Origin: Dehalococcoidia bacterium | GTDB taxonomy: Bacteria > Chloroflexota > Dehalococcoidia > UBA6926 | Direction: 5' to 3' | Assembly: GCA_965204885.1 (NCBI GenBank) | Contig: OZ242019.1 | Span: 1,127,327-1,191,326 of the forward strand | DNA: 64,000 bases | Shown here: positions 2,020 to 64,000 of the stretch, piece by piece | How the letters are laid out: every line of letters begins with the position of its first letter | Position numbering within the stretch: position 1 is the stretch's first letter | The notes under the pieces: generated by a model | The model's database searches: none | What the model saw: the letters and a program-made list of their open reading frames with translations, nothing else | What the model was told of the DNA's origin: nothing | Made by a program: the position numbers and the translations under genes

Positions 2020-3153
2020 ATGGCAAACAGGTTACATACACCGCTGTGCGACATGCTCGGCATGGAATACCCGATACTCCTGGCGGGCATGGCCGTGGGC
2101 GGCAGCCAGGATCTTGCGCCAACTCCCGTCGAGATGGTCGCCGCGATCAGCAACGCGGGGGCGCTCGGCGTGCTCGGCGACAATTTCCGCAATTTGGATG
2201 AGATGGACGAGGGCATCCGGCGACTTCAGTCGCTCGTGGGCGACAAGCCGTACGGCGTGGACTTCCTCGTCCCCGCCACCCGCGCCGAAGTGACCGCCAC
2301 GAGCAACAGGGAACTGTATGCGCAGGTTGCGCCGCAGTACCCGCAGCATGTCGCGCTCGTGCAGGAACTCATCGAGGAATACGGGTTCGAGGCTGAGGAA
2401 GTCTCGGAGCAGCCGCCGATGTCCACTGAGCTGCTGCGCAAGAAGATCGAGATTGTGCTGGACAACAAGGTGCCGCTGTTCGCGGCGGCGACGGGCGAGC
2501 CGCCGGAGTGGTTCACCCAGCAGGGCCATGCGCAGGGCATGAAGTTCATCGGCATGACCGGCGCGGTGCGCCACGCACAGCGCCAGGTGGCCGCGGATGT
2601 GGACATCATCACGGCGCAGGGCACGGAGGCGGGCGGTCATACGGGCAACATCTCAACGTTCGTGCTCGTTCCGCAGATCGTCGATGAGGTCTCGCCGCGA
2701 CCGGTTCTTGCCGCGGGAGGCATCGGCACCGGTCGTCATGTTGCCGCGGCGCTCGCGCTCGGCGCGCAGGGGGTGTGGGTCGGCACGGCGTTCCTGGTGG
2801 CGGAGGAGAACAACATCCCCGACGCGCACAAGGACCAGATTCTCGGCGCACGCTCCGATGAGTTCACGACGAGCAAGTTCTCGTCCGGCAAGCAGCAGCG
2901 GGCGTATCAGAACGCCGTGAAGCTGAAGTGGGCGGCCTCCGGTTTGGAGGCGCTGCCGATGCCGTTGCAGGGCCTGATCCAGGAGCCGTTCACGAAAGCG
3001 GCGCGCAAGGCGGGCAGGCTTGATCTGATCGGCAACCCGTCCGGCCAGATCGGCGGGATGCTCAAGGAGCGCAAGCCGGCTCGGACGATCCTCATGGACA
3101 TGGTCAACCAGGCAGAGGAGACCATCGAGCAACTGCAGGGGAACCTGCGGTAG
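2020..3153 (+). CDS. nitronate monooxygenase family protein (tandem paralog)
   Basis: Same architecture and motifs as the upstream gene (GTEAGGHTGN, LAAGGIGTGR); roughly 50% identity by eye. Confidence 0.8.
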   Translation: MANRLHTPLCDMLGMEYPILLAGMAVGGSQDLAPTPVEMVAAISNAGALGVLGDNFRNLDEMDEGIRRLQSLVGDKPYGVDFLVPATRAEVTATSNRELYAQVAPQYPQHVALVQELIEEYGFEAEEVSEQPPMSTELLRKKIEIVLDNKVPLFAAATGEPPEWFTQQGHAQGMKFIGMTGAVRHAQRQVAADVDIITAQGTEAGGHTGNISTFVLVPQIVDEVSPRPVLAAGGIGTGRHVAAALALGAQGVWVGTAFLVAEENNIPDAHKDQILGARSDEFTTSKFSSGKQQRAYQNAVKLKWAASGLEALPMPLQGLIQEPFTKAARKAGRLDLIGNPSGQIGGMLKERKPARTILMDMVNQAEETIEQLQGNLR

Positions 3154-3177
3154 ATACCGGTTCGATTCCGACTTGGA

Positions 3178-3226
3178 AGAAAGCCCCCGCCACGCTCAGG
3201 CGCGGCGGGGGGCTTTCTTATTTTGC
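3178..3226 (+). terminator. Rho-independent terminator
   Basis: aaagcccccgcc...ggcggggggcttt stem followed by cttatttt, 25 nt after the stop. Confidence 0.5.
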
Positions 3227-3314
3227 GAGTCGTGCCTCTTTGGCTAGAGCTTGACAGGCTCCCAGTTTTGAAGATAATAAGTGTACAGAGTAACAGTGTA
3301 AGGAGGCTGGAGTT

Positions 3315-4013
3315 ATGGTACCGGTTGTGAGGATAAGCGAGGAGTCTTATGAGCGGCTTAAGAGTTGGGCGGAACCGCTTGAAGACACGGCAGAGGATGC
3401 GCTACGCAAGGTTTTGGACGCTGCTGACCAGCAACGGACTGGGCAAGAGCACCAGGAAGATGTCGTCCATGATGTGTTGGTCGCGTACGCTCCCGAAGTG
3501 AAAGCGGTCGCTGATGTCAAAACGGAAAGCAATTCGAATCCGGCTGCAATTACACCTGACAATTCGGCTGGAACCGCCGGACGGATGTATGTGTCCTTGC
3601 CGGATGAATTCAAATCTCTGGCTAAGGGTCAAGGTAGAATGAGGGGCCGGATTGCTCGCAAAGCCTATCTCGAGAGAATCGGCGTGCCGGCTATTCGGCC
3701 AGGTCAGTGGGTGCGAACCACGAATGGGCAGATGCAATATCTTGGCTATTCATCACAGAACAGCCCCGACAACTGGTTTTTTGGAGCGGACGAAGATCTG
3801 GTAGAAAGGTACCTCGCGGATAACACCCTAGCGGCCTTTGTATTCCTGTGTGGCCTGTCGGAAGACATGATTATTGCTGTACCTTTGGGTATCTCTCAGT
3901 TAGAGCAATTAATCCAGTTGGGGATCTTTTCCAAGAGCGGTGGTCAACTCAAGTTCAATATTCGTAGAGAAGCTGGCGATGTCTTCTACTTGGATGGAAG
4001 GCTGATTGAATAA
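3315..4013 (+). CDS. hypothetical protein with N-terminal ribbon-helix-helix-like segment
   Basis: Good SD (taaggaggctggagttATG); N-terminus VVRISEESYERLKSWAEPL-EDTAEDALRKVL resembles a beta-alpha-alpha RHH/Arc fold; C-terminal ~150 aa unrecognised; AT-richer than flanks. Confidence 0.5.
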   Translation: MVPVVRISEESYERLKSWAEPLEDTAEDALRKVLDAADQQRTGQEHQEDVVHDVLVAYAPEVKAVADVKTESNSNPAAITPDNSAGTAGRMYVSLPDEFKSLAKGQGRMRGRIARKAYLERIGVPAIRPGQWVRTTNGQMQYLGYSSQNSPDNWFFGADEDLVERYLADNTLAAFVFLCGLSEDMIIAVPLGISQLEQLIQLGIFSKSGGQLKFNIRREAGDVFYLDGRLIE

Positions 4014-8882: not shown

Positions 8883-10838
8883 TCAAGAGGCTGCGTCCAA
8901 GGTTTCGCCAAGTATTTCTTTCAGTACATACCGTTTGAATGCGTCAACACTTGTGAAGCAGCGGTAACCGGCGCTTGCGCCAACAGAGAGTGTCTCAATC
9001 CCTTCATCAAGCAGAACCGCAACAGGTTGGCTCAAGCCCTCTTGTAGGCCATTTGGCCATGCCAAATCGAATATCGCTAGTGGAGAGTCGTTTTCGGGGT
9101 CAGTGTAATCAAATCCCATTTCGCCATGTGCGAGCCCGTGAGATTCCACCCAGTCATTGAGGTTCACTAGCTCAGCCTCCTCGTCCGAGCTAGCAATCTC
9201 GCCCGGAACCTCAATCGGTTGGCTGGCCGACGGTTCCTGCGTTACCGGCGATGGCGTTGGCTCCGAACTCTCGGTGAGAGTGCTCATCAACTTATTAGTC
9301 TGGGCGGCCATTAGTTGTGCCCGCTCCTCGAGAAAGCCAGGATAATTGTCTAGGTGCCAAAGATTACGATTCGTAGGAATCCACTGTGATTCGAGTGCGC
9401 CGGGATGATTAGCGGCAACTTCTTCGAGATACTCCTGAGGATTACGATTGCTAATCTGCAGATTGCTGTCCTTTGTCAGGAAACAAAGATTGCCCAACGC
9501 ATTGACTTGGGCGCGCGAGTAACCGTGCTTATAGAGCAAGGATTTAGGAAATATGTGATGAACCTCAAGCTGATTCATTTTCCCAACATTGCCTTGCTTG
9601 AGAGGCAAACCGGTTCCCAAATCTCTACTGTCGGACATCCTCGTGAGCATATATAGAACGGGGTAAAACCTTGCGCCGAGCCCCAGACCTTCTGAAAAGT
9701 GCTGGGATTCGACTGTTGGACGATTCCAAATCCTGACACGTTCCACGAGTGACTCAAGCGGCGATTTGGTGTCATTGTCGAGTGTTGCCAGATCCTGCTC
9801 AAGCGATGTTTCTGTGTTGCCAGAGTACCGGCCCCACATACCAGCTTGGGCATAGTAGTAGAGCAGATTTCCTTGTTCGAGGGCATCCGGCGATTTATTG
9901 TATCGATCATAGAACCGTGCCATGACTGGCACTGCGTGGCGGGCAAAAAATACTCTGTCGTGATCCAGACCCAAGCGGCCATCAATCAATGCAATGATGG
10001 CATCAATTGACCTTACGGCTCTGCCAAGCCCATCCTTCACTTCTTCGGAAGACTTTTCGCTTAAATATCTGAAATCGGCTCGCCCGGTAAGGATGGAGTT
10101 GATCGACCGAAGAAGCCATACAAGGTCGAAATAGTAGCCTTTTTTATTCCACTCATCCAGTGCGTCCTTCATTCTTTCTCTAGCCTCGGGCCAACCGGCG
10201 CATATCTTCGCTAGTGCCAGATCGCCTTTAGAGAGCTTGGTGCCACCACTGTTCACGCGGTTGAAAATATCGACCACAATATCAAGATCAAGATCTTTGC
10301 TCGCCATTATCTCTATTGGCAACTCGACCTCCCGAATCCCCAAGAGGCGACTCAGACGGCCATAGATTTCAGATGTCCGAAGAGTGTCGTTCTCCGGTAA
10401 GTCAACGTGGTCGAGGTAGCTAGACCCTGCACGCATAACGTCCGTGACGTTTACCCAGAGCGGATCGTCGCGCATTCTTATCGCTTGATAAAACTCGAAC
10501 CTCTCGGTACCAACGTGGAACATTAAACCAGTGAATGTTCTTTCATCGCCGTCAAAGAATCCAGGAGGTCCTCCCCTGACAACGCCATACAATGTCGTGA
10601 CTCGCTGCTGACCATCCAGCAACAACTGCACGACGCCCGGCGGGGGTGTATTTGAGCCTCGAAAGTCCGCAGTACTTGCGGATGTCTCCCAAATGAGCAA
10701 GCCTCCCACGGGATGCTTGCGATACAGTGAATCGAACAGACTTCTAACTTGTTCTCTGTTCCATACGTAACTTCGCTGAAACTTTGGCAGACTTATTTGC
10801 CCGCTGTCGACTCGGTCAAGGATTGTGGATATCTGCAC
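8883..10838 (-). CDS. GmrSD-family type IV restriction endonuclease (DUF262 + DUF1524) with extra C-terminal domain
   Basis: N-terminal LPKFQRSYVW...LLDGQQRVTTL (DUF262/ParB-like) and EVHHIFPKS (DUF1524 His-Me finger); P/S/E-rich linker then ~100 aa tail with FDLAWPNG...VAVLLDEG; AT-rich. Confidence 0.8.
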   Translation of the reverse strand: MQISTILDRVDSGQISLPKFQRSYVWNREQVRSLFDSLYRKHPVGGLLIWETSASTADFRGSNTPPPGVVQLLLDGQQRVTTLYGVVRGGPPGFFDGDERTFTGLMFHVGTERFEFYQAIRMRDDPLWVNVTDVMRAGSSYLDHVDLPENDTLRTSEIYGRLSRLLGIREVELPIEIMASKDLDLDIVVDIFNRVNSGGTKLSKGDLALAKICAGWPEARERMKDALDEWNKKGYYFDLVWLLRSINSILTGRADFRYLSEKSSEEVKDGLGRAVRSIDAIIALIDGRLGLDHDRVFFARHAVPVMARFYDRYNKSPDALEQGNLLYYYAQAGMWGRYSGNTETSLEQDLATLDNDTKSPLESLVERVRIWNRPTVESQHFSEGLGLGARFYPVLYMLTRMSDSRDLGTGLPLKQGNVGKMNQLEVHHIFPKSLLYKHGYSRAQVNALGNLCFLTKDSNLQISNRNPQEYLEEVAANHPGALESQWIPTNRNLWHLDNYPGFLEERAQLMAAQTNKLMSTLTESSEPTPSPVTQEPSASQPIEVPGEIASSDEEAELVNLNDWVESHGLAHGEMGFDYTDPENDSPLAIFDLAWPNGLQEGLSQPVAVLLDEGIETLSVGASAGYRCFTSVDAFKRYVLKEILGETLDAAS

Positions 10839-27204: not shown

Positions 27205-29469
27205 ATGACGACCGAGTACAAGGTGATCGGCAAATCCGTCCGGGCAGTCGATGGTCCGGACAAGGTCACGGGACGCATTCAGTACGCGCTGGATGTCGCG
27301 CCGCCGAACGCGCTCCGGCTCAAGTATCTGCGCTCACCCGTCCCACATGCCCGCGTCACCAATATCGACGCCTCTCGCGCCCTCGCGCTGCCCGGCGTCC
27401 ACGGGGTACTGACCGGTGACGATGTTCCCGATATCCGCGCTGGAAACCTCTATGTGGATGAGCCGATCCTGGCGTCGGCGGACCGCGTCCGATTCATCGG
27501 CGACAAGGTCGCCGCCGTCGTCGCGGACGACGCTGACATCGCGGATGCTGCTCTCGCTCTCATAGATGTCACATATGAAGAACTTCCGGCCCTGCTTGAC
27601 CCCGAAGAGGCCGCCAAACCCGATGCCATGCTGCTCCATCCGGAATACAACTCCTATCGGGGAGTGGAGCAGTTGGACGAGCTCAGCAATAACTACGGCC
27701 GCATGGTGCACGAATGGGGCGATATAGAGGCCGCGTTCCGTGAGGCGGACGTCATCATCGAGCGAGAGTTCCGCACCCCCCGCGTTCACCAGGCCTATCT
27801 TGAGCCGCATGCCTGCGTTATCGACGTGGACGAGCAGGGGCGCGCCCATATCTGGATGTCATGCCAGATGCCGACGGGACGGCGTCCCCACCTCGCTCGC
27901 GTGATGGGCCTCCCGCGAGAAGACGTAATCATCCACCCCGTTCCTCTTGGCGGATCGTTCGGCGGCAAGATGGACCCGACAGGCGTCGTTGTCGGCTATT
28001 TCCTCGCCAAGCAGACAGGACGACCCGTCAAGTGGGTTATGGACTACGCGGAGGAGTTCTCCGCCATGAATCCACGGCATCCGTCAGTGGTGCGGGTGCG
28101 GGTTGGCGCGCGGAATGACGGCATGATTATCGCATGGGATGCGGAGGGGTTCTTTGCGACGGGCGCCTATGCAGCCTACGCTCCCGTTCCCGCGTACGGC
28201 GGCTTGCTGCGGACCTCCATGGTGGAACCGTACCGGGTTGAAAACGTCCGCATCATCTCGAACCAGGTCTACACGAACACTGTTCCATGCGGCTACTTCC
28301 GCGGCCCCGGCCTCATGCAATCCGTTTTCGCCTCCGAGTCCGTCATCGATGAGCTTGCCGCCCGGCTGGATCTTGATCCGTTGGACCTGAGGCTGCGCAA
28401 CATCGTTCGCGCTTCAAGCGAGGCGCATCCGGACCGAGGATGGAGCCCTGTCACCCGACCAGGTCTGCCCGGCTACCAGGCGCTTCGAGCCGAGGAAATC
28501 CTTCGCGCCGCGGTTGAGGCGGCAGAGTACTCACGCCCAACGTCCCCAAACGTTGGGCGCGGCATCGCCCTGCATGGCCAGAGCGATACGGGATTCGATT
28601 CCCCAGCCGCCGTGACGCTTCATCCCGATGGCCGCGTTGTCGTCAACACCATGACCTACGACCCCGGCGTAGGCACGGGTACAATCCTTGCCCAGATCGT
28701 CGCCGAGGAACTCGGTCTGCCAATCGAACGCGTCACCGTTGAGGCATGGTCGACGGAGGCCGGCGTGCGCGACTGGGGCATCGGGGGTCAGCGGGGGGCG
28801 CGTGTCTCAAGCCGCGCCGCATTTGAGGCCAGCCAGGAGGCAAAGCGCAACCTCCGCCGATTGGCCGCGGAGTTCTACGGTTGGACGGAGGAATCGATCA
28901 AGTTCGAGGACGGCAAGGTCTCCGGCGAGGGTCGCGCCGCCGCGGTTCCGCTGGAGGAGATTGCCGCGCGGGCGGGGGAGCCGGTGGGTGGCCAGGTCAG
29001 CGTGGATGAGGGCGACAGCAGCCCCTATATCTCATTTGGCGCGCATATTGCGGAGGTGAGGGTCGACCCCGAGACGGGCAAGGTGACGCTGCTGCGCTAC
29101 ACCGCTGCGCATGAGACGGGGCGCGTTCTGAATCCCATGGGATTCGTGGGTCAGATCGAGGGCGGCTCCGTGCAGGGCATCGGTCACGCGCTGTCAGAAG
29201 AGCTGGTCGAGCAGGACGGCAGCATCACCAATCCCTCATTTGCCGACTACAAGCTGCAGACGCAGCAGGACGGCGCGCGCATGAATGTCGTGGTGCTGGA
29301 GTCTGAGACCGGCCACGGCCCCTACCAAGTGCGCGGTATCGGAGACACGCCCATCGTCCTGTCCTCGCCTGCCATCGCCAACGCCGTCGCCGCCGCATCC
29401 GGCGCGCGGATCCAGCAACTTCCCATCACGGCAGAAAAGGTGTACCGGGCGCTAAACGACGCCGAGTAG
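27205..29469 (+). CDS. xanthine dehydrogenase/aldehyde oxidase/CO-dehydrogenase family molybdopterin-binding subunit
   Basis: 754 aa; Ald_Xan_dh_C and C2-type architecture (VTGR..Y..D; GGSFGGK; EIGQ-like motifs). Confidence 0.85.
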   Translation: MTTEYKVIGKSVRAVDGPDKVTGRIQYALDVAPPNALRLKYLRSPVPHARVTNIDASRALALPGVHGVLTGDDVPDIRAGNLYVDEPILASADRVRFIGDKVAAVVADDADIADAALALIDVTYEELPALLDPEEAAKPDAMLLHPEYNSYRGVEQLDELSNNYGRMVHEWGDIEAAFREADVIIEREFRTPRVHQAYLEPHACVIDVDEQGRAHIWMSCQMPTGRRPHLARVMGLPREDVIIHPVPLGGSFGGKMDPTGVVVGYFLAKQTGRPVKWVMDYAEEFSAMNPRHPSVVRVRVGARNDGMIIAWDAEGFFATGAYAAYAPVPAYGGLLRTSMVEPYRVENVRIISNQVYTNTVPCGYFRGPGLMQSVFASESVIDELAARLDLDPLDLRLRNIVRASSEAHPDRGWSPVTRPGLPGYQALRAEEILRAAVEAAEYSRPTSPNVGRGIALHGQSDTGFDSPAAVTLHPDGRVVVNTMTYDPGVGTGTILAQIVAEELGLPIERVTVEAWSTEAGVRDWGIGGQRGARVSSRAAFEASQEAKRNLRRLAAEFYGWTEESIKFEDGKVSGEGRAAAVPLEEIAARAGEPVGGQVSVDEGDSSPYISFGAHIAEVRVDPETGKVTLLRYTAAHETGRVLNPMGFVGQIEGGSVQGIGHALSEELVEQDGSITNPSFADYKLQTQQDGARMNVVVLESETGHGPYQVRGIGDTPIVLSSPAIANAVAAASGARIQQLPITAEKVYRALNDAE

Positions 29470-29554
29470 GCGGGGGATACTCTCACCCAGCACGACCGGG
29501 GTTCTCGGCCCGGCCATCTTTGACATATGTATTTAGCCTGATTAGATTGCCGAA

Positions 29555-30745
29555 ATGGATGGGGCCCGGGGAATCAAGCCAATGGTTGATGGAAAAGCGC
29601 GTGGAATTTTACGTGTACTGCTCATCGCCATGTCCGTCTTTGTGATGGCCTTCATCGCCTGCGGGGAGCCGCTCCCCACTTTCACACCCGTCGCCACTCC
29701 CACTGAAACCCCCGGCCCATCGCCAACACCGTCCCCGACAGAAACAGCCACCCCATCCCCCACCCGCACCGCCGTACCGACAGCCACGCAAGTGCCACCT
29801 CCGCCCACACCGACGGGAACACCCGTACCCACACCGACGCTGGTTCCATTCAATGACAGGGCGGCGCTAGAAGCACTCTACCATGCGACCGACGGCGACA
29901 ATTGGGTCCGCAATGACAACTGGTTAACTGATGCTCCTCTTGGTGAATGGTACGGCGTGACGACCAATGAGGAGGGGCGGGCTACCCACTTGGTTCTCCA
30001 TGAGAACCTGCTTAGCGGAGAGATACCGGTGGAACTTGGCTTATTGGCAGAACTCAGAAGATTGTCGTTCAACGCGAATACGTTGGGTGGAGAGATACCG
30101 GCGGAACTCGGCAATCTGTCTAACCTTGAAATTTTAAATCTCAGCATCAACAAGTTGAGTGGAGGGATTTCACCGGAACTGGGTGATCTTACGTCCGTTA
30201 GGTGGTTGACACTTGCGAATAACGAACTAAGTGGAGGGATTCCAGCCGACTTTGGCAACCTATCCAGCCTTGAAGGATTGGATCTCGCTTACAACCTGTT
30301 GAGCGACGAGATTCCAGCCGAACTGGGTAAACTGTCCAACCTAGAATACTTGCGGCTAAGCTTCAATCAATTGAGCGGTAATATACCACCAGAAATGGGC
30401 AATTTGTCCAACCTTGAAAATGTCCAGATCAGGGGCAACCAATTGAGCGGCGCTATTCCTGCAGAACTTGGCAACCTGTCCAATCTTAAGTCTCTACATC
30501 TCCCACAAAATGATTTGAGTGGTGAGATACCGCCGGAACTGGGTAGGTTGCCCACCCTTGAAAGTTTACATCTCTATGATAACCGGCTCAGTGGCATGAT
30601 ACCGCCGGAACTGGGTGATTTGACGTTGAAAGGGATATCCCTCTGGGGCAATCGGCTAGTGGGATGTATTCCCGCTGACTTGCGAGGCGTCCCGTCCAAC
30701 GATTTTGAGGCGCTTCAGCTACCATTCTGTCAAGATGCCCAGTGA
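29555..30745 (+). CDS. leucine-rich-repeat lipoprotein with plant-type 24-residue LRRs
   Basis: Lipobox FIAC; Pro/Thr-rich linker; about 10 repeats of LxxLxxLxLxxNxLSGxIPxELGN; 72-bp periodicity visible in the DNA. Confidence 0.75.
   Translation: MDGARGIKPMVDGKARGILRVLLIAMSVFVMAFIACGEPLPTFTPVATPTETPGPSPTPSPTETATPSPTRTAVPTATQVPPPPTPTGTPVPTPTLVPFNDRAALEALYHATDGDNWVRNDNWLTDAPLGEWYGVTTNEEGRATHLVLHENLLSGEIPVELGLLAELRRLSFNANTLGGEIPAELGNLSNLEILNLSINKLSGGISPELGDLTSVRWLTLANNELSGGIPADFGNLSSLEGLDLAYNLLSDEIPAELGKLSNLEYLRLSFNQLSGNIPPEMGNLSNLENVQIRGNQLSGAIPAELGNLSNLKSLHLPQNDLSGEIPPELGRLPTLESLHLYDNRLSGMIPPELGDLTLKGISLWGNRLVGCIPADLRGVPSNDFEALQLPFCQDAQ
29990..30700 (+). repeat. 72-bp tandem coding repeats (LRR units) inside the LRR gene
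   Basis: Recurring ...ctgtccaaccttgaa...caattgagcgg...ataccgccggaactgggt... units. Confidence 0.6.
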
Positions 30746-30815: not shown

Positions 30816-30956
30816 ATGAAAGCAGTCCAGATTAGTGAGCACGGCGGGCCGGAGGTGCTGGAATTCACGGACGTTGATGATCCGATCGCGGGGCCGGGCG
30901 CGGCCGTTGTTCAACTCGCTGCCTCCGGCGCGACGATTTCCACGTCACTGTTGTAG
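30816..30956 (+). pseudogene. 5' fragment (46 codons) of a quinone oxidoreductase gene: duplicated copy of the start of the qor gene at 31799
   Basis: About 125 bp (~30800-30925) are ~88% identical to 31786-31908, including RBS and ATG; the frame terminates after 46 codons. Confidence 0.5.
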
Positions 30957-31756
30957 TCGGAGAGCACGATTACGATTTGGGTTGTGATGCTGTCCACGTC
31001 GTCGTCCCCTTGCTCAGAGAGAACTTCAACCTTACGAACCAGGTAATCGTCGACGCCGATCCAATACGAGACTTTACCCTCCGTGTCGAAGAGACCCTGG
31101 CCTTCTACCAACTCCACCAGGTCCGGGCCCGACATCGTTACTCGTAGATGGTAGACTCTTTCACCTTCGAGAGACTCCACTCCCACCAACTCAAACTGCG
31201 CCGCGCTATCAACTGGGAAGTCGGTATTGAATGCCGGGGCCGCCAGGAAGTCGTGGAGAGAGTCAGTGGCGTCAATGTTGGCTTCCCATTCACCCGTCAA
31301 AGGGTTCTTGATATACGACTCAACTCCTATCGAAATGAACTCCAGTTCAACGGTGAAGCCCTGGGTCTTGACTGCCATCGTTGCCTGAGTTCGATCCGGG
31401 AGCTGGAAATCTCCCGATACATGGATCTCTGCGGTAAAGCCATTCTCACCCTCGAATGCGCCAGTTGTATTCATCTCTAAATGACCGGATTGGACAGTTT
31501 TCATCGCCGCGGTTGTCTCGCGAAGAATTTCAACGGCTGATGGTAACGAGGGAGTCGCAGTCGGGGCAGCGGAAGGCGTGTTTGTCGGAACGGGTGTTGA
31601 AACAGAAATGACGAATGGTGTTGGCGCGAATTGCGGTGTCTGCAAGAGTGGAGCAGTTGGTTCAGGTAAATCACCCTCGCAGGCCGTAATCGTGACTGCT
31701 AAGCCGGCCAGCAAAGCGAAGCTTGCCAGTAGTCGGATAATTCCTGATACCGTCAT
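30911..31756 (-). CDS. lipoprotein (hypothetical; Pro/Thr-rich linker)
   Basis: True start MTVSGIIRLLASFALLAGLAVTITAC (lipobox); the longer ORF-track N-terminus is antisense to qor; C-terminal domain unrecognised. Confidence 0.6.
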   Translation of the reverse strand: MTVSGIIRLLASFALLAGLAVTITACEGDLPEPTAPLLQTPQFAPTPFVISVSTPVPTNTPSAAPTATPSLPSAVEILRETTAAMKTVQSGHLEMNTTGAFEGENGFTAEIHVSGDFQLPDRTQATMAVKTQGFTVELEFISIGVESYIKNPLTGEWEANIDATDSLHDFLAAPAFNTDFPVDSAAQFELVGVESLEGERVYHLRVTMSGPDLVELVEGQGLFDTEGKVSYWIGVDDYLVRKVEVLSEQGDDDVDSITTQIVIVLSDYNSDVEIVAPEAAS

Positions 31757-31798: not shown

Positions 31799-32767
31799 AT
31801 GAAAGCAGTCCAGATCAACGAGTATGGCGGGCCGGAGGTGCTGGAATTCACGGATGTTGATGATCCGGTCGCGGGGCCGGGCGAGGCCGTTGTTCAACTC
31901 GCCGCCTCCGGCATCAACTACATGGATGTGTATGGCCGCACCGGGCTTTACGGGCAGGGCCCGCTGCCGACGATCCTCGGCGGCGAGGGCGCGGGCACAG
32001 TTGTTGAGATTGGGTCGGACGTGGCGACGCCGTCGGTTGGTGATGTTGTCGCTTATACGGGCGCGTCGCGCTCGTACGCGGAGCGCGTTGTTGTTCCGGC
32101 GGATCGACTCATCGTACTGCCGCAGGGGATCACAGCGGAGCAGGGCGCGGCGGCGATGCTGCAAGGCATGACGGCGCACTATCTGTCCCATTCCACGTAT
32201 CCGCTTAGCCCGGACGATACGGCGCTGGTTCACGCAGGCGCGGGCGGCGTGGGGCTGCTGCTGATCCAGATGGCCAAGATGCGCGGCGCAACGGTCATCA
32301 CGACGGTTTCGACGGAGGAGAAGGCGGAGCTTGCGCGAGAGGCGGGGGCAGACCATGTGGTTCTCTACACGCGGGAGGATTTCCAGGAGGCCGTGATGCG
32401 CATCACGGACGGCGCGGGCTGCCAGGTGGCCTACGATTCCGTCGGCGCGACGACATACGAGGGCTCGATGGCCAGCCTTGCGATTCGTGGATGCCTGGTC
32501 ATGTACGGCCAATCCAGCGGCGTGGTGCCGCCGATCGCGCCGCTGGCGTTGAACGCAAAGTCGCTGTTCCTGACGAGGCCGTCGTTGTTCAACTACACGC
32601 TCACAAGAGATGAACTGGAGTGGCGGGCAGGCGACGTGCTGGGCTGGATCGCGGACGGGAAGCTGTCGCTGCGGATCACAGAGCGATTCCCTCTGCAGGA
32701 TGCCGCTGAAGCGCATCGGCGACTTGAATCCCGCCAAACCACCGGCAAGCTGCTGCTGATTCCATAG
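31799..32767 (+). CDS. qor: NADPH:quinone oxidoreductase (zinc-type alcohol dehydrogenase superfamily)
   Basis: MKAVQINEYGGPEVL...; Rossmann motif AGAGGVG; 322 aa. Confidence 0.85.
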   Translation: MKAVQINEYGGPEVLEFTDVDDPVAGPGEAVVQLAASGINYMDVYGRTGLYGQGPLPTILGGEGAGTVVEIGSDVATPSVGDVVAYTGASRSYAERVVVPADRLIVLPQGITAEQGAAAMLQGMTAHYLSHSTYPLSPDDTALVHAGAGGVGLLLIQMAKMRGATVITTVSTEEKAELAREAGADHVVLYTREDFQEAVMRITDGAGCQVAYDSVGATTYEGSMASLAIRGCLVMYGQSSGVVPPIAPLALNAKSLFLTRPSLFNYTLTRDELEWRAGDVLGWIADGKLSLRITERFPLQDAAEAHRRLESRQTTGKLLLIP

Positions 32768-49035: not shown

Positions 49036-50810
49036 TTACTCGGCCTCCTCGTCGTCTTCCAGTTGGGTCGAGTCAAGCAGGAAATCCCATTCAGATGCCA
49101 GATGGTTCTGAATCACCTTTCCCCGTTTGTTGATGAATTCGAGATAATCCTCTCGAGTCTTGTCTTGTCGCTGCATTAGTTCTAGGCACTCAGCATCAAC
49201 AAAGAAAGTGTCAAATAGGGTGGTCAGCTCGTTTGGCCAATTGTCCCTAACGTCTTTGACTTGGTCAGAGGGGTTCATCTTGGCCCATCTCCGATTCGTA
49301 TCACCTGTAATTGGCATCACATTAAGTGCCAAGTCAGAATCAGGTGCCCTTCCGCCACTCCCCAAGAAGTCAGCCACGAATGCTCTGGGGAAGATGTGGT
49401 GACTATGCGCTGACACAATGGCCACGCCAGTCCCCCCGACAGGCTCTTTGTTCAGCGGATCCTTGGGCTGTCTCCTGCTTATCAGCATCGAAATGAGTTT
49501 GCCGATCGCGCTGGAGGGCTTAATGGTGTCCAAGGACCCTACGCGAACGTTCTTTAGCCAAGAGGGCTCGTTCTCTCCCTTAGAGTCAATCCACTCCAGC
49601 AACTCACGTTCATCTCTTGCCTGTGTTGTCGGCTGCGCCTCCGTATAACGTTGACTGATGACTGTACCCACGAACCACCGCTCAAGGCGGTCATGCCATC
49701 TTGCTTTCTCGTGGCTAGGACCACTGTAGGCGGATTCAATTTTGGCGAGTGCGATACCGAGCGGGGGCAGAATTGCAGGATACGGAATCAGCTGACCTGT
49801 GTGGTCTAACCCGGCCCCAAGGCGATTCGTCAGGAATTCTCCGACTCTGTCTAGCGCGTCAATCGCATCATTCTTCCGTTTTCTGTAATTGACATGCGTT
49901 ATCGTCTTTGGCAATAAAGATCTCTTAGGATTCTCTTGTTCCAGCAATGCTACCGTTTGCAGGAGCAATTCACCATTTGCGTCTATGTGCCGGTAGTAAG
50001 CCGATAGCTCCTTAAATTCATCTATGTCTTGTCTCAGGTGAATACCATGTGAATAGAGAACCGCAACAACAATTTCAACAGGAGTCAATCGCTGGCCAGA
50101 AGTGTTGAGAGTCGCGAACACGCGAGTTATCGCCTCAATTGGCATTCCCTCATCAAGTTCCGTCAGTGGAACTGTGGGTTGAATCCCGATTTTGAAATAA
50201 GTGTCAATGAATCTCTCCAAGAATTTGCGACGATTCGGATGTTGTTTCAGATACCTCTCTTTCGCATCCCCAAACAAATCGTTATCAGCAAGTGCGGCAG
50301 TCCATAGCAAGTGTGAGTCGACAAGGTCAATCGGATTGTTGTTGCGACGGCGGGCAACGAGGTACTTGTCGTCTTCGTCAAGATCCTCTGCCAAAGCGCG
50401 CAAATTCTCCCGGGAGTGGTCGGCGGTTGGAACATCCGGGTCGGCAATATCAGGAGCTACGTCGACTGCCTTATCCCACAGGTAACCTAGATTCAAGAAA
50501 TACTGTGACGATCCAAGCCCCCTATAAAGCGCGAGCCCAGCAGTAATACGCTGCTGTCCATCAAGGACATATGCGTCGATTGGGTCAGTGGCTTCAACAA
50601 CGGGGTCAAAGAGCCTAGGCGACGATTTAATCTGTCAGATGACTCAAGCGTAAGAAACGCTCCAATCGGATAGTTTTTTCGGATTGAATCGTAAAGGCGC
50701 ATGACCTTCGCCCGAGTCCATTTCCAATCTCGTTGAAACTCAGGAAGCCTGAGCTTGCCCGATGCGGCGTGGTCAACTAACTCCTTGAAGCTAATGGTCT
50801 CTGTCTTCAA
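49036..50810 (-). pseudogene. GmrSD-family (DUF262/DUF1524) type IV restriction enzyme gene disrupted by a frameshift
   Basis: N-terminal LPEFQRDWKW in one frame (50493-50810); canonical ...PIDAYVLDGQQRITAGLAL... continues in the -1 frame, with two in-frame TGAs near 50630-50645; downstream HSHHIFPRA (DUF1524). Confidence 0.7.
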
Positions 50811-50910: not shown

Positions 50911-50990
50911 TGGCGCGCCCGGCAGGATTCGAACCCGTGACCCTCGGTTCCGAAGACCGACTACCCTCTACTCCGTTGAGCTACGGGCAG
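50911..50990 (-). pseudogene. degenerate tRNA-Arg(TCG)-like copy
   Basis: About 90% identical to the tRNA-Arg at 51394-51470 but has a C1:C72 mismatch, a 3-nt insertion in the D-arm and a T-stem change. Confidence 0.45.
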
Positions 50991-51330
50991 GCAGGGGCGT
51001 TCGGAAGAACTGGTACATGCGGCCATTTGCGCCCGTGGACTCGGCGACAGGAATCCGGGGACGGTATTGGTAAGGTGGGGGCTCGTACTCTACTCGGACG
51101 TTATATTCGCGCAGAAAGTCATTCAACGTGTCCATGTCGGTGAGATTTTCCAGTTGTAACTCAATGGCCTCCGCAAGCATCGCAAACGCTTCCTCAACGG
51201 TGTCGCCGCAGCTGGCCACCCCAAGTTCCGGGCAGATTGAAACGTATTGATCGTCCTCGCGCTCAACCATTCCGGTCAGCAAAATGTACGCGCCCGATTG
51301 CGCCTTATCCCGCTGGGCCGACTTTACCAT
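50968..51330 (-). CDS. HicB-like (UPF0150) antitoxin-family protein, orphan
   Basis: YILLTGMVEREDDQYVSICPELGVASCGDTVEEAFAMLAEAIELQLE fits the HicB-like fold signature; its 3' end runs into the degenerate tRNA copy; no HicA partner seen. Confidence 0.5.
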   Translation of the reverse strand: MVKSAQRDKAQSGAYILLTGMVEREDDQYVSICPELGVASCGDTVEEAFAMLAEAIELQLENLTDMDTLNDFLREYNVRVEYEPPPYQYRPRIPVAESTGANGRMYQFFRTPLPARSSTE

Positions 51331-51393: not shown

Positions 51394-51470
51394 TGGCGCG
51401 CCCGGCAGGATTCGAACCCGCGACCCTCGGTTCCGAAGACCGATGCTCTACTCCACTGAGCTACGGGCGC
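51394..51470 (-). tRNA. tRNA-Arg (TCG)
   Basis: Reverse complement: GCGCCCG/CGGGCGC acceptor, D-arm GCTCAGTGGAGTAGAGC, anticodon stem TCGGT/ACCGA with loop CTTCGGA, GGTTCGAATCC T-arm. Confidence 0.8.
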
Positions 51471-62524: not shown

Positions 62525-64000
62525 CTATTCCCCGTTGCGCTTCTCCTGTAGGGCCGCGTAGACCTTTTCAGCAGTGATTGGCAGCGACGTGATGCGCACG
62601 CCTACCGCGTCTTCGATGGCATTCGCGATGGCTGGGGCAGTCATGATGTTGGTGTGCTCGCCGATGCCGCGTACCGCGTACGGACCATCGCCCACGTCCG
62701 ACTCCAGCACAATCTCGTTCAACTCCGGCAGGTCGCGAACGGTCGGGAGCTTCATGTCTGCGAACGACGGGTTAGTGACGCGGCCGGACTCGTCATAGAC
62801 CGTCTCCGTCATCACCGTCTCGCCGAAGCCGTACACGACACCGCCCTCGAGTTGACCATAGAACGCGACCGGGTTTAGCACCCGTCCCGTCTCATGCACG
62901 GCGGTGATCTTCAGGACTTCGAAATCACCCGTCTCCGGGTCGACCTCAACCTCTGCGATCTGCGTGCCGAAGGCCGTGTACGGGCTTGTGCCCTCCTGGA
63001 TATCGACCCGTGTGACGATAGGCTCGCCGGTCCGCGTAGCAATCTCGCCGAATGCAATTGTCTCGCCGCTGTCGTTGACCACGTTCCCGTCACTCAACTT
63101 CAGCCGCTCCTCATCCCAACCCTGGAACTCTGCGGCCAAACGTCGAAGCTTGTCTGCCGTATCAGAGGCCGCCATGTGTCCGACGGTGCTCGTGACGCGC
63201 GCGCCGCGGCTGCCGCCGATTCCCTGCAACGGCCCAAGCTGATTCGATGAGAAAGACAGCGCCTCAACGTCCTGCGGAGAAACGCCAAGCTGCTCCGCCA
63301 CTACCTGCGCGATGATCGTGAACGTGCCGCCGCCTGTATCGAACGTGGAGAAGTGGGCGGTAATCGAGCCGTCCGTCGTGATCGTGACCTGGCACACCGC
63401 CGCGCCACCGCCCTGCGAATGATGGCCGGTGCCAATGCCGATTCCGACGTTTTCCGGGCGATTATTGGAGTAGTTGGCCTCGCGCAGCGCCTCCTCAAGG
63501 GTTGTGTCGGCGCGCAGGGCCTGGTACTCGTCACCGTTCATCAGGGGCTCACCGTCGTGGGTGATGTTCTTCGTGCGGAACTCCGCCGGGTCCATGCCGA
63601 TGGCACGGGCACAGAGGTCGATGTGCGACTCTCCCGCCCACAGCCCTTGTGGCATCCCGGGCGCCCGGGCGAAACCGCACGGCACCAGGTTTGCGTAGGT
63701 ATGTGTGATGGACATGGCGACGTTCTCGCAGCGGTACGCCCCGCCCATCTCGAACACGCCACGCAGGCCGTTGGGAACGGGCGCATACGACACATACCCG
63801 CCGATGGCCAGGTACGCGTCTGCCTGCCATGCGGTGATCGTCCCGTCGCGCTTGACGCCTGCCTTGATGGTAATTTCGGACGGATGCCGTGGGTTGGATG
63901 CCATCAACTCCTCGGAATAATCAAAGACCAGCTTGATGGGGCGACCCGTCCGCTTGGCGAACTCGTACATGATGTAGACGCCCACCGCGTCCGTCTTGCC
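62525..64000 (-). CDS. xanthine dehydrogenase-family molybdopterin-binding subunit (C-terminal part; 5' end beyond window)
   Basis: Paralogous to 27205-29469 (for example ...VHETGRVLNP...GVVYGFG...); the frame is open to the window edge. Confidence 0.8.
   Translation of the reverse strand, partial: GKTDAVGVYIMYEFAKRTGRPIKLVFDYSEELMASNPRHPSEITIKAGVKRDGTITAWQADAYLAIGGYVSYAPVPNGLRGVFEMGGAYRCENVAMSITHTYANLVPCGFARAPGMPQGLWAGESHIDLCARAIGMDPAEFRTKNITHDGEPLMNGDEYQALRADTTLEEALREANYSNNRPENVGIGIGTGHHSQGGGAAVCQVTITTDGSITAHFSTFDTGGGTFTIIAQVVAEQLGVSPQDVEALSFSSNQLGPLQGIGGSRGARVTSTVGHMAASDTADKLRRLAAEFQGWDEERLKLSDGNVVNDSGETIAFGEIATRTGEPIVTRVDIQEGTSPYTAFGTQIAEVEVDPETGDFEVLKITAVHETGRVLNPVAFYGQLEGGVVYGFGETVMTETVYDESGRVTNPSFADMKLPTVRDLPELNEIVLESDVGDGPYAVRGIGEHTNIMTAPAIANAIEDAVGVRITSLPITAEKVYAALQEKRNGE

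Follow-up and report, generated by a model that had tools for sequence, protein, structure and literature searches.

A predicted surface lipoprotein with plant-specific-class leucine-rich repeats in a variable slot between two core genes of a Dehalococcoidia lineage

A 64,000-nucleotide stretch of contig OZ242019.1 from a Dehalococcoidia bacterium (assembly GCA_965204885.1; positions 1,127,327 to 1,191,326, forward strand), hereafter the window, encodes at positions 29555-30745 on the plus strand a lipoprotein built largely of leucine-rich repeats (LRRs) of the class known as plant-specific (PS). We consider it probable that this is a surface lipoprotein with a stalk-borne PS-LRR binding domain, encoded as a cassette in a recombination-prone slot between two core genes and with a likely role in contact with a host. 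The protein is one more example of the known LRR-bearing eukaryotic-like surface proteins of host-associated bacteria, not a new system; the combination of lipoprotein head, stalk and PS-LRR solenoid, the exchange of LRR bodies while the head is conserved, and the variable slot come from the present analysis only.

The coding sequence is an intact open reading frame (ORF) specifying 396 aa. An earlier note, made from the letters of the DNA alone, had placed an LRR lipoprotein gene at these same positions and on this strand, and had read in it a bacterial lipobox, a Pro/Thr linker and about ten 24-residue repeats of the plant-specific subtype. Each of these elements is borne out, and the protein and its immediate upstream region can be divided as follows:

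29520..29548, plus strand: promoter-like TTGACA-17-TAGATT (10 of 12 matches; weak evidence)
29555..29662, plus strand: signal peptide and lipobox F33-I34-A35-C36 (lipobox regular-expression match; helix at residues 15-35 in the AlphaFold2 (AF2) model)
29663..29848, plus strand: Pro/Thr-rich stalk, residues 37-98 (composition; predicted local distance difference test (pLDDT) score about 50, predicted disordered)
29849..29980, plus strand: N-terminal cap (N-cap), residues 99-142, DRAALEALYHATDGDNW...NWLTDAPLGEWYGVTT, without Cys (kept in syntenic and metagenomic homologues)
29981..30697, plus strand: ten plant-specific-type LRRs, residues 143-381, nine of 24 residues and one of 23 (repeat table, consensus, phmmer against PDB, Foldseek)
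30626..30742, plus strand: C-terminal cap (C-cap), comprising the last repeat and the tail, with Cys371, Cys392 and the motif G-C-I-P...L-P-F-C (homologue consensus)

The N-terminus shows a basic, K/R-containing n-region followed by the hydrophobic helix and the lipobox A-F-I-A-C36, which fits the PROSITE-type pattern, so that the mature protein is predicted to start at a lipidated Cys36. The same lipobox expression matches 11 of the 12 syntenic LRR proteins from related genomes, all 12 of which have [AGS]-Cys at residue 26-39, and lipoboxes are also present in the neighbouring LppX-like protein (described below) and, in another part of the window, in a solute-binding protein. The stalk comprises 62 residues, 63% of them Pro or Thr. 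Beyond it, Pfam LRR_1 (E=3.9e-31), LRR_14, LRR_4 and LRR_8 all score over their gathering cut-offs, the N-cap itself giving a single weak match to LRR_10 (E=0.023). Among 27 metagenomic homologues, which have both the N-cap and the Cys-containing C-cap in common, the C-cap motif reads GCIPxxLxxxxxxDxxxLGLPFC as a consensus, and it occurs in most of the syntenic proteins; a disulfide between Cys371 and Cys392 may stabilise this cap. The chain stops only 15 residues beyond the last repeat. An AF2 model from a 28-sequence alignment has a pLDDT of 97-99 over residues 100-390, dropping to about 50 in the stalk, and shows every repeat as two short strands and a short helix. The promoter-like sites upstream of the gene stand at chance level (one found, 1.3 expected in shuffled sequence); if the one listed above is used, the ATG of Met10 at 29582, which is preceded by GGGGA, would be the likelier start. 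A terminator scan returned none.

The ten consecutive units give, at ≥50% agreement, the consensus LxxLxLxxNxLSGxIPAELGxLSx, with Asn9, Leu11 and Ile15 invariant across repeats and Gly13 and Pro16 present in eight of nine units. Both the unit length and the consensus agree with the definition of the PS class, namely LxxLxLxxNxL(t/s)GxIPxxLGxLxx over 23-25 residues (PMC2946307). Sequence and structure searches point the same way: when phmmer was run against all PDB chains, ranks 1-40 were ectodomains of plant LRR receptor kinases, headed by GSO1 (4.7e-221) and including MIK2, TDR/PXY, FLS2, RGFR, BRL2, HSL1, PEPR1 and BRI1, and the first bacterial chain was Leptospira LIC11098 (3.1e-51). Likewise, the top 50 Foldseek matches of the model in PDB are plant LRR proteins, nearly all of them receptor ectodomains, at 25-38% identity, with a query-normalised TM-score of up to 0.67 and a root-mean-square deviation of 2.0-2.7 Å over about 290 columns. 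The nearest solved structures are hence PS-LRR solenoids, and consensus, sequence and fold together confirm the assignment of the repeats to the PS class.

This resemblance concerns the repeat class and not the origin, and the protein lies outside the plant receptor family proper. With the ectodomains of plant LRR receptor kinases and receptor-like proteins, and with PGIP, it shares the 24-residue unit and the PS consensus; GSO1, MIK2, TDR/PXY, FLS2, HSL1 and BRI1 are its best PDB matches in both sequence and fold, and its N-cap is recognisably similar in pattern to theirs (…ALxxLY…W…W.GV…GRV..L.L). Unlike them, it has no kinase match in Pfam and no C-terminal transmembrane helix, the predicted N-terminal lipid anchor taking the place of the C-terminal membrane span; its N-cap is free of the Cys pair that marks the plant LRRNT_2 cap (PF08263), which neither the whole protein (E≤0.01) nor the cap alone (E≤10) matches; its C-cap carries a G-C-I-P…L-P-F-C motif of its own; and it has just ten repeats, with the island domain absent in this allele. 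Two LRR proteins from the equivalent slot in related genomes (L113 3796-5040 and L016 15984-17471) contain a Cys-containing insertion of ~25-35 residues between repeats, e.g. GNQRLLGSGLDRQCQINPDARLSGRSCINSL, which recalls the island domains seen in plant receptors.

The close relatives of the protein are bacterial. A search of 5.8 billion proteins, in which 8000 candidates were scored, recovered at least 6031 homologues at E≤1e-3, of which the best is 58% identical, and the nearest relatives, at 50-58% identity as against 25-38% for the plant proteins, are bacterial and number in the thousands. Exact look-ups of the LRR protein, from either possible start, and of the protein of the left-hand neighbouring gene (27205-29469) in an index of 153 billion genes gave no match. 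LRRs of the "plant-type" are common in bacteria as a repeat class, and their presence does not by itself speak for plant-to-bacterium transfer. Among these homologues, the cluster of P0065 (≥90% identity) has members of 311, 427, 681 and 914 aa, a spread that could be due to variation in repeat number among close relatives or to partial gene calls. In the related locus L016, a further lipoprotein (2354-3574) combines a Pro/Thr linker with a ~200-aa domain without assignment, four LRRs and a G-C-I-P…L-P-Y-C cap, and its sequence shows the LRR/C-cap module joined to other domains.

The earlier note had also described the repeat region as a near-periodic tandem array at the DNA level, which does not hold for this allele. 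Tandem Repeats Finder (TRF) reports no array in the gene even at score 30, the 72-nt units have a mean identity of 54% and a maximum of 68%, a repeat search sees the 72-nt spacing at 62-72% identity only, and the longest exact repeated word measures 19 nt. The same codon is used at the same residue between units at a frequency of 0.43, against 0.32 expected. The 72-nt periodicity is thus essentially imposed by the protein repeat. The remark that the LRR part is AT-richer than what precedes it fares better in one half than in the other. GC does fall to 0.465-0.48 over 30000-30600, against 0.61-0.69 in the flanking genes; the contrast with the linker is largely a matter of amino acid composition (GC at second codon positions is 0.66 in the linker and 0.39 in the LRR part), and both parts are atypical at third codon positions (GC3). 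The GC3 values are 0.53 for the LRR repeats, 0.61 for the signal/linker part and 0.58 for the neighbouring LppX-like lipoprotein gene, with 0.73-0.79 for core genes. For the repeat region, a GC of 0.594 is predicted from its amino acid sequence with the codon usage of six core genes, themselves at 0.64, and 0.494 is observed, so roughly 40% of the drop is due to amino acid composition and the remainder to atypical codon usage. Hence the whole cassette, i.e. the LRR gene with the lipoprotein gene, is compositionally atypical, and not the LRR part alone. The GC3 of all 12 syntenic LRR genes is similarly offset (0.57-0.66, versus 0.69-0.84 in the anchor gene to their left), and the composition is therefore a long-standing trait of the gene pool.

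The genomic context of the gene is a small slot between two conserved genes, which in the window also holds a second lipoprotein gene and a fragment of the right-hand anchor:

27205..29469, plus strand: left anchor, molybdopterin-binding subunit of the xanthine dehydrogenase/aldehyde oxidase family (XDH), core gene (Pfam MoCoBD_1, MoCoBD_2, Ald_Xan_dh_C; GC3 0.76)
30816..30929, plus strand: qor', a 114-nt stretch that repeats the 5' end of qor (its first 114 nt) at 92% identity (blastn and repeat searches)
30911..31756, minus strand: second cassette gene, a 281-aa LppX_LprAFG-family (LppX-like) lipoprotein with lipobox T-I-T-A-C and its own Pro/Thr linker (Pfam PF07161)
30921..30929, no strand assigned: junction microhomology GCCTCCGGC (9 nt) between qor' and the 3' end of the LppX-like gene (three-way alignment)
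31799..32767, plus strand: right anchor, zinc-type quinone oxidoreductase/alcohol dehydrogenase (qor), core gene (Pfam ADH_N, ADH_zinc_N; GC3 0.77)

A search with the XDH protein retrieved 22 loci from metagenome-assembled genomes (MAGs) of Dehalococcoidia/Chloroflexota at 75-98% aa identity; it is 84-98% identical in 21 Dehalococcoidia genomes and 75% in an outlier (L019), and qor is 84-98% identical in the relatives. A scan of JGI soil, ocean and sediment metagenomes with the C-terminal 269 aa of XDH found only relatives at ≤54% identity. The slot survey drew on these 22 loci and six more from the 90% cluster members of XDH, giving 26 distinct loci including the window, which fall into five states:

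Empty slot (63-103 nt): six loci (L004, L015, L020, L022, L109, L111)
One LRR lipoprotein gene: eight loci (L001, L003, L006, L012, L013, L014, L021, L113)
Minus-strand LppX_LprAFG-family gene only: seven loci (L002, L005, L008, L009, L010, L017, L112)
LRR gene and LppX-like gene: four loci (the window, L011, which is identical to L108, L007 and L110)
Three LRR genes: one locus (L016)

Accordingly, 13 of the 26 loci are without any LRR gene, and where LRR proteins are encoded they range from 5 to 19 repeats and from 281 to 596 aa. A neighbour-joining tree of XDH and qor shows different slot states side by side in the same clades. Intergenic distances nearby are mostly unchanging from locus to locus (e.g. 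-169, -1, about 9 and about 11 nt), and a few vary. Pairs with ≥93.7% core nucleotide identity always have the same slot state, L011 and L108 being identical, and differences in state occur between lineages at the level of species (≤93% core nucleotide identity). A fast phase variation of the slot is not supported, because genomes at ≥93.7% core identity share their slot state. The expectation that the locus would vary among relatives is strongly supported by a gene that is present, absent or replaced, with 5-19 repeats where present. Its extension to copy-number variation of a contingency type does not hold for the window's allele, which has no array, and close pairs do not differ in state; six of the 15 slot LRR genes tested, all six from relatives, do contain 72-bp arrays.

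Integration of a site-specific element into the slot was considered and rejected, as no inverted repeats, tRNA or integrase-sized ORF were found there; recombination through flanking homology, together with one microhomology junction, is favoured. Two loci from the same sample, ERZ25069412, have an empty slot (L111) and a 414-aa LRR gene (L113), and their core genes differ, marking them as different strains. The gap between the dienelactone hydrolase gene and XDH, 170 nt long in the window, is a second small variable slot in relatives: it holds a pair of RHH-antitoxin and PIN-toxin genes in L011 (9243-9921) and L112 (6299-6921), and in L110 (3214-6495) a gene for a 1093-aa Type ISP restriction-modification protein (methyltransferase/endonuclease; N6_Mtase and Type_ISP_C).

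In the window, a trace of how the slot came to hold two genes can be read at the junction between them. The assignment of the LppX-like protein rests on a PF07161 match (E=3.6e-8; 33.9 bits against a cut-off of 24 bits), and its homologues in relatives are 281 to 437 aa long and 52-92% identical, the L110 version having a C-terminal acidic extension. Downstream of the LRR stop codon, from about 30793, lie about 20 nt similar to the region upstream of qor, followed by qor', which abuts the 3' end of the LppX-like gene so that the stop codon of the latter (30911-30913) lies inside it. Alignment of this junction with qor, with the LppX-like-only allele of L002 and with L011 places the blastn breakpoints at 30921/30922 and 30929, i.e. 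at the 9-nt microhomology. L011/L108 share the window's junction, and in L016 a longer qor fragment (65 codons) lies between the first and second LRR genes. The simplest reading of these sequences is that an allele of the form XDH-LRR-qor and another of the form XDH-LppX-like-qor were stacked by a microhomology-mediated crossover at GCCTCCGGC.

The LRR gene itself appears to be a mosaic, whose parts differ in their affinity to the syntenic homologues. The stalk is 85-93% identical to those of L003, L006, L007, L011 and L014, and signal peptides are of about three types among the syntenic homologues. The N-cap is 64-77% identical in 11 of 12 of these and 59% in the third LRR gene of L016 (L016c), and the LRR body with the C-cap is 48-56% identical to theirs. 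When each part was ranked against 132 proteins, the top matches of the head (ranks 1-9) were the syntenic genes; for the LRR body, five non-syntenic metagenomic proteins match better than any syntenic one. L011, whose locus is organised like that of the window and whose head is the nearest of all, comes last for the LRR body (rank 132, 41%).

Nei-Gojobori estimates of synonymous (pS) and non-synonymous (pN) divergence give a comparable picture. In the flanking genes pS is 0.27-0.46 and the ratio of non-synonymous to synonymous rates (dN/dS) 0.03-0.08; in the stalk pS is 0.49-0.65 and dN/dS 0.03-0.14 (0.03-0.11 for five close syntenic homologues and 0.14 for L001); and in the signal region, compared between the window and L011, pS is 0.07, younger than the flanks. 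In the LRR module pS reaches 0.74-0.81 (saturated) and dN/dS is not estimable for most pairs, although repeats may align out of register between alleles and inflate both pS and pN there. With that caveat, the LRR bodies appear to predate the species splits and to have been replaced, not just to have diverged in place. Synonymous sites are saturated in the LRR module and not in the flanks, and variation comes chiefly from the exchange of entire genes or LRR modules, not from repeat slippage. Nor is positive selection in situ supported as the sole cause of the LRR divergence, the synonymous sites being saturated too.

Within the repeats, variation has a clear spatial pattern. Over 134 repeats from 13 proteins, repeat positions 3, 5, 7 and 8, which are the exposed residues of the concave β-sheet, have an entropy of 3.6-3.8 bits, and the scaffold positions, which are ≥82% conserved, one of ≤1.1 bits. 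A second layer of variation is in unit number: TRF finds arrays with 72/144/216-bp periods in six of the 15 slot LRR genes tested, namely those of L006, L011, L013 and L014 and the first two of L016 (L016a, L016b), with e.g. 87% matches over 6.4 copies in L014 and 83% over 8.2 copies in L016b; these arrays, which the window lacks, suggest recent unit duplication in the relatives.

Two further regions of the window hold genes of the GmrSD type. A 651-aa GmrSD_N/GmrSD_C (DUF262/DUF1524) protein, which PADLOC identifies as HEC-05 (E=6e-45), is encoded at 8883-10838 on the minus strand, in a low-GC islet (GC 0.51, GC3 0.53) of this 62% GC genome. A second GmrSD-like gene at 49036-50810 (minus strand) is split into two ORFs (105 aa and 486 aa) and probably disrupted; it adjoins two tRNA-Arg(TCG) genes (50911-50990 and 51394-51470) that flank a small ORF (50968-51330), a layout that suggests integration of an islet at a tRNA, the target being duplicated. 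Near the window's end, a second XDH-family paralogue (62543-64000, minus strand), 46% identical to the anchor at 27205-29469, runs past the boundary.

On the evidence above we envisage the following course for the protein and its gene. The protein would be exported by Sec, Cys36 would be modified with diacylglycerol by Lgt and the signal peptide then cleaved by signal peptidase II (LspA), and the stalk of ~60 residues would keep the LRR domain away from the membrane, so presenting the capped ten-repeat PS-LRR solenoid as a surface for binding a protein or other ligand. Contact with host cells or matrix is the most likely use of this surface, because of the lineage and the literature on eukaryotic-like proteins (ELPs), and other external partners such as phages are possible. 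The gene is no stable orthologue, being one of several cassettes found in the slot between the two core genes: the lineage conserves the export and anchor head (signal peptide and stalk), LRR bodies are drawn from a wide pool and also grow or shrink by 72-nt units, and it is the concave face that carries the variable residues. The present arrangement of LRR gene, qor', LppX-like gene and qor would have arisen by an illegitimate crossover at the 9-nt microhomology.

The lineage argument draws on several strands. LRR ELPs have been reported in sponge-associated Chloroflexi of the SAR202 and Caldilineae groups (PMC6306507), and the LRR class of ELPs is defined by Pfam PF00560, PF12799 and PF13855 (PMC11706023). 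All three families score over their gathering cut-offs in the present protein, which thus has the same Pfam set as the LRR ELPs of sponge symbionts, and its related loci are from Dehalococcoidia MAGs. One related MAG bears the sample code SB0661, which also yields Entoporibacteria bins, and the names of others (APA_bin, Plut_) presumably denote sponge or coral samples; literature searches with the accessions of MAGs and samples gave the listing of SB0661 bins among Entoporibacteria as their sole clue to habitat. It should be borne in mind that the ELPs are an operational class without a defined mechanism, and that the cited papers handle LRR ELPs as Pfam-defined counts.

Several considerations weigh against this interpretation. 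To date it is ankyrin ELPs, not LRR ELPs, for which a function in host interaction has been demonstrated (PMC11706023). The host-associated habitat of the window's genome is read from how related MAGs are named, the protein's lipidation and its exposure at the surface are predicted from a sequence motif, and both the binding function and the selective agent are what we infer. The nearest relative of the window has a core identity of only 90.8%, so that the comparison is between species and not within one, the possible misregister of repeats noted above affects the estimated age of the LRR module, and a search of the 64-kb window for silent donor cassettes, recombinase genes or other LRR-like sequence found none.

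The alternatives differ in what they make of the same observations. A contingency locus, in which slipped-strand mispairing or intragenic recombination between near-identical 72-bp units would frequently switch the repeat number within a strain, would account for the 5 to 19 repeats among syntenic genes, for the TRF arrays in six of the 15 slot LRR genes tested, all six in relatives (up to 87% matches), and for the 90%-identity homologue cluster with members of 311-914 aa. We nonetheless regard it as improbable: the window allele is TRF-negative, with units at 54% identity and no exact repeat beyond 19 nt, the slot state does not change at ≥93.7% core identity (L011 = L108), and the synonymous saturation speaks for old rather than recently generated alleles. 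Equally, the plant ectodomains that make up the best solved-structure matches, and a gene AT-richer than its genome, might suggest that the bacterium recently acquired part of a receptor ectodomain from a plant or alga by horizontal transfer. The bacterial homologues are however the closer ones (50-58% against 25-38% identity), the N-cap is without the plant Cys pair or an LRRNT_2 match, lipobox and stalk are bacterial, GC3 is intermediate in 12 of 12 syntenic genes and hence a long-standing trait of the family, and the LppX-like neighbour and the GmrSD islets have low GC3 as well; such a transfer is exceedingly improbable.

The remaining rivals concern function. A decaying passenger gene without current function is very hard to reconcile with an ORF that is intact with both caps, a confidently folded AF2 model, a scaffold conserved at ≥82% over 134 repeats with variation confined to exposed positions, and a stalk under strong purifying selection (dN/dS 0.03-0.14), even though codon usage is atypical, half of the loci (13 of 26) dispense with the LRR gene, and in L110 it is split into two ORFs (on a contig of only 5x coverage). 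More room must be given to the idea that the same molecule serves as a phage receptor or decoy, the slot then being a flexible genomic island diversified by phage predation and not by an animal host. Nothing but two kinds of surface lipoprotein gene occupies the slot, with presence/absence polymorphism; the other low-GC islets of the window consist of anti-phage genes (GmrSD/HEC-05); P0001, the best homologue, has a GmrSD gene nearby; and the neighbouring slot of relatives carries the toxin-antitoxin pair or the Type ISP restriction-modification gene. As LRR enrichment has been reported specifically for host-associated lineages (PMC6306507, PMC11706023) and PADLOC has no match to the LRR protein, we hold this to be possible though doubtful. 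Our preferred interpretation thus remains that of a stalked surface binding protein with a likely role in host contact. Going beyond it, we tentatively raise, as a minority view, that the slot is a population-level surface-variation system, in which the head and the 5' end of qor would act as fixed recombination anchors between which LRR bodies from a shared pool of paralogues or co-resident relatives are swapped and stacked.

Known LRR and variable-locus systems offer partial parallels. Listeria internalins follow the same concept: an LRR solenoid with an N-cap, anchored to the bacterial surface, binds proteins of the host, a binding which for the present protein would be by analogy. They have 22-residue repeats, an immunoglobulin-like inter-repeat domain and LPXTG/GW anchoring, and NCBIfam internalin_A gives 47.5 bits against a cut-off of 1600. 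The Leptospira LRR proteins LIC10831, LIC11098 and LIC12759, together with the LIC_11051 fibronectin-binding family, are bacterial extracytoplasmic LRR proteins and supply the first bacterial chains among the PDB matches; their repeats are of a different class, their chains score far below the plant ones (3e-51 vs 5e-221), and NCBIfam LIC_11051 reaches 52.8 bits against a cut-off of 1000. Taken together, the NCBIfam models XopAE, XopAC, XopL, internalin A and LIC_11051 score 40.6-75.6 bits versus cut-offs of 450-1600, all sub-threshold, and PADLOC matches neither the LRR protein nor the LppX-like protein. Flexible genomic islets and replacement hotspots resemble the slot in the presence/absence and replacement of surface-protein genes between core anchors and in atypical composition, with no integrase or tRNA involved; unlike them, the slot is very small (0-3 genes), its stacking by microhomology crossover leaves a core-gene fragment, and head/body modularity exists within a single gene.

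Papers on sponge symbionts usually treat LRR ELPs as a bulk Pfam category, without architecture, localisation or evolutionary dynamics, and the locus described here supplies a concrete and testable example, with an architecture for surface display, variation on the concave face and a slot in which the trace of recombination can still be read. Provided that the variable face binds molecules of host or phage, the slot would be a convenient metagenomic marker of symbiont-host or symbiont-phage co-evolution. Should the slot indeed be a surface-variation system, members of the symbiont lineage would present different recognition surfaces to host or phages, and it would represent a bacterial, recombination-based analogue of the diversification of variable LRR receptors.

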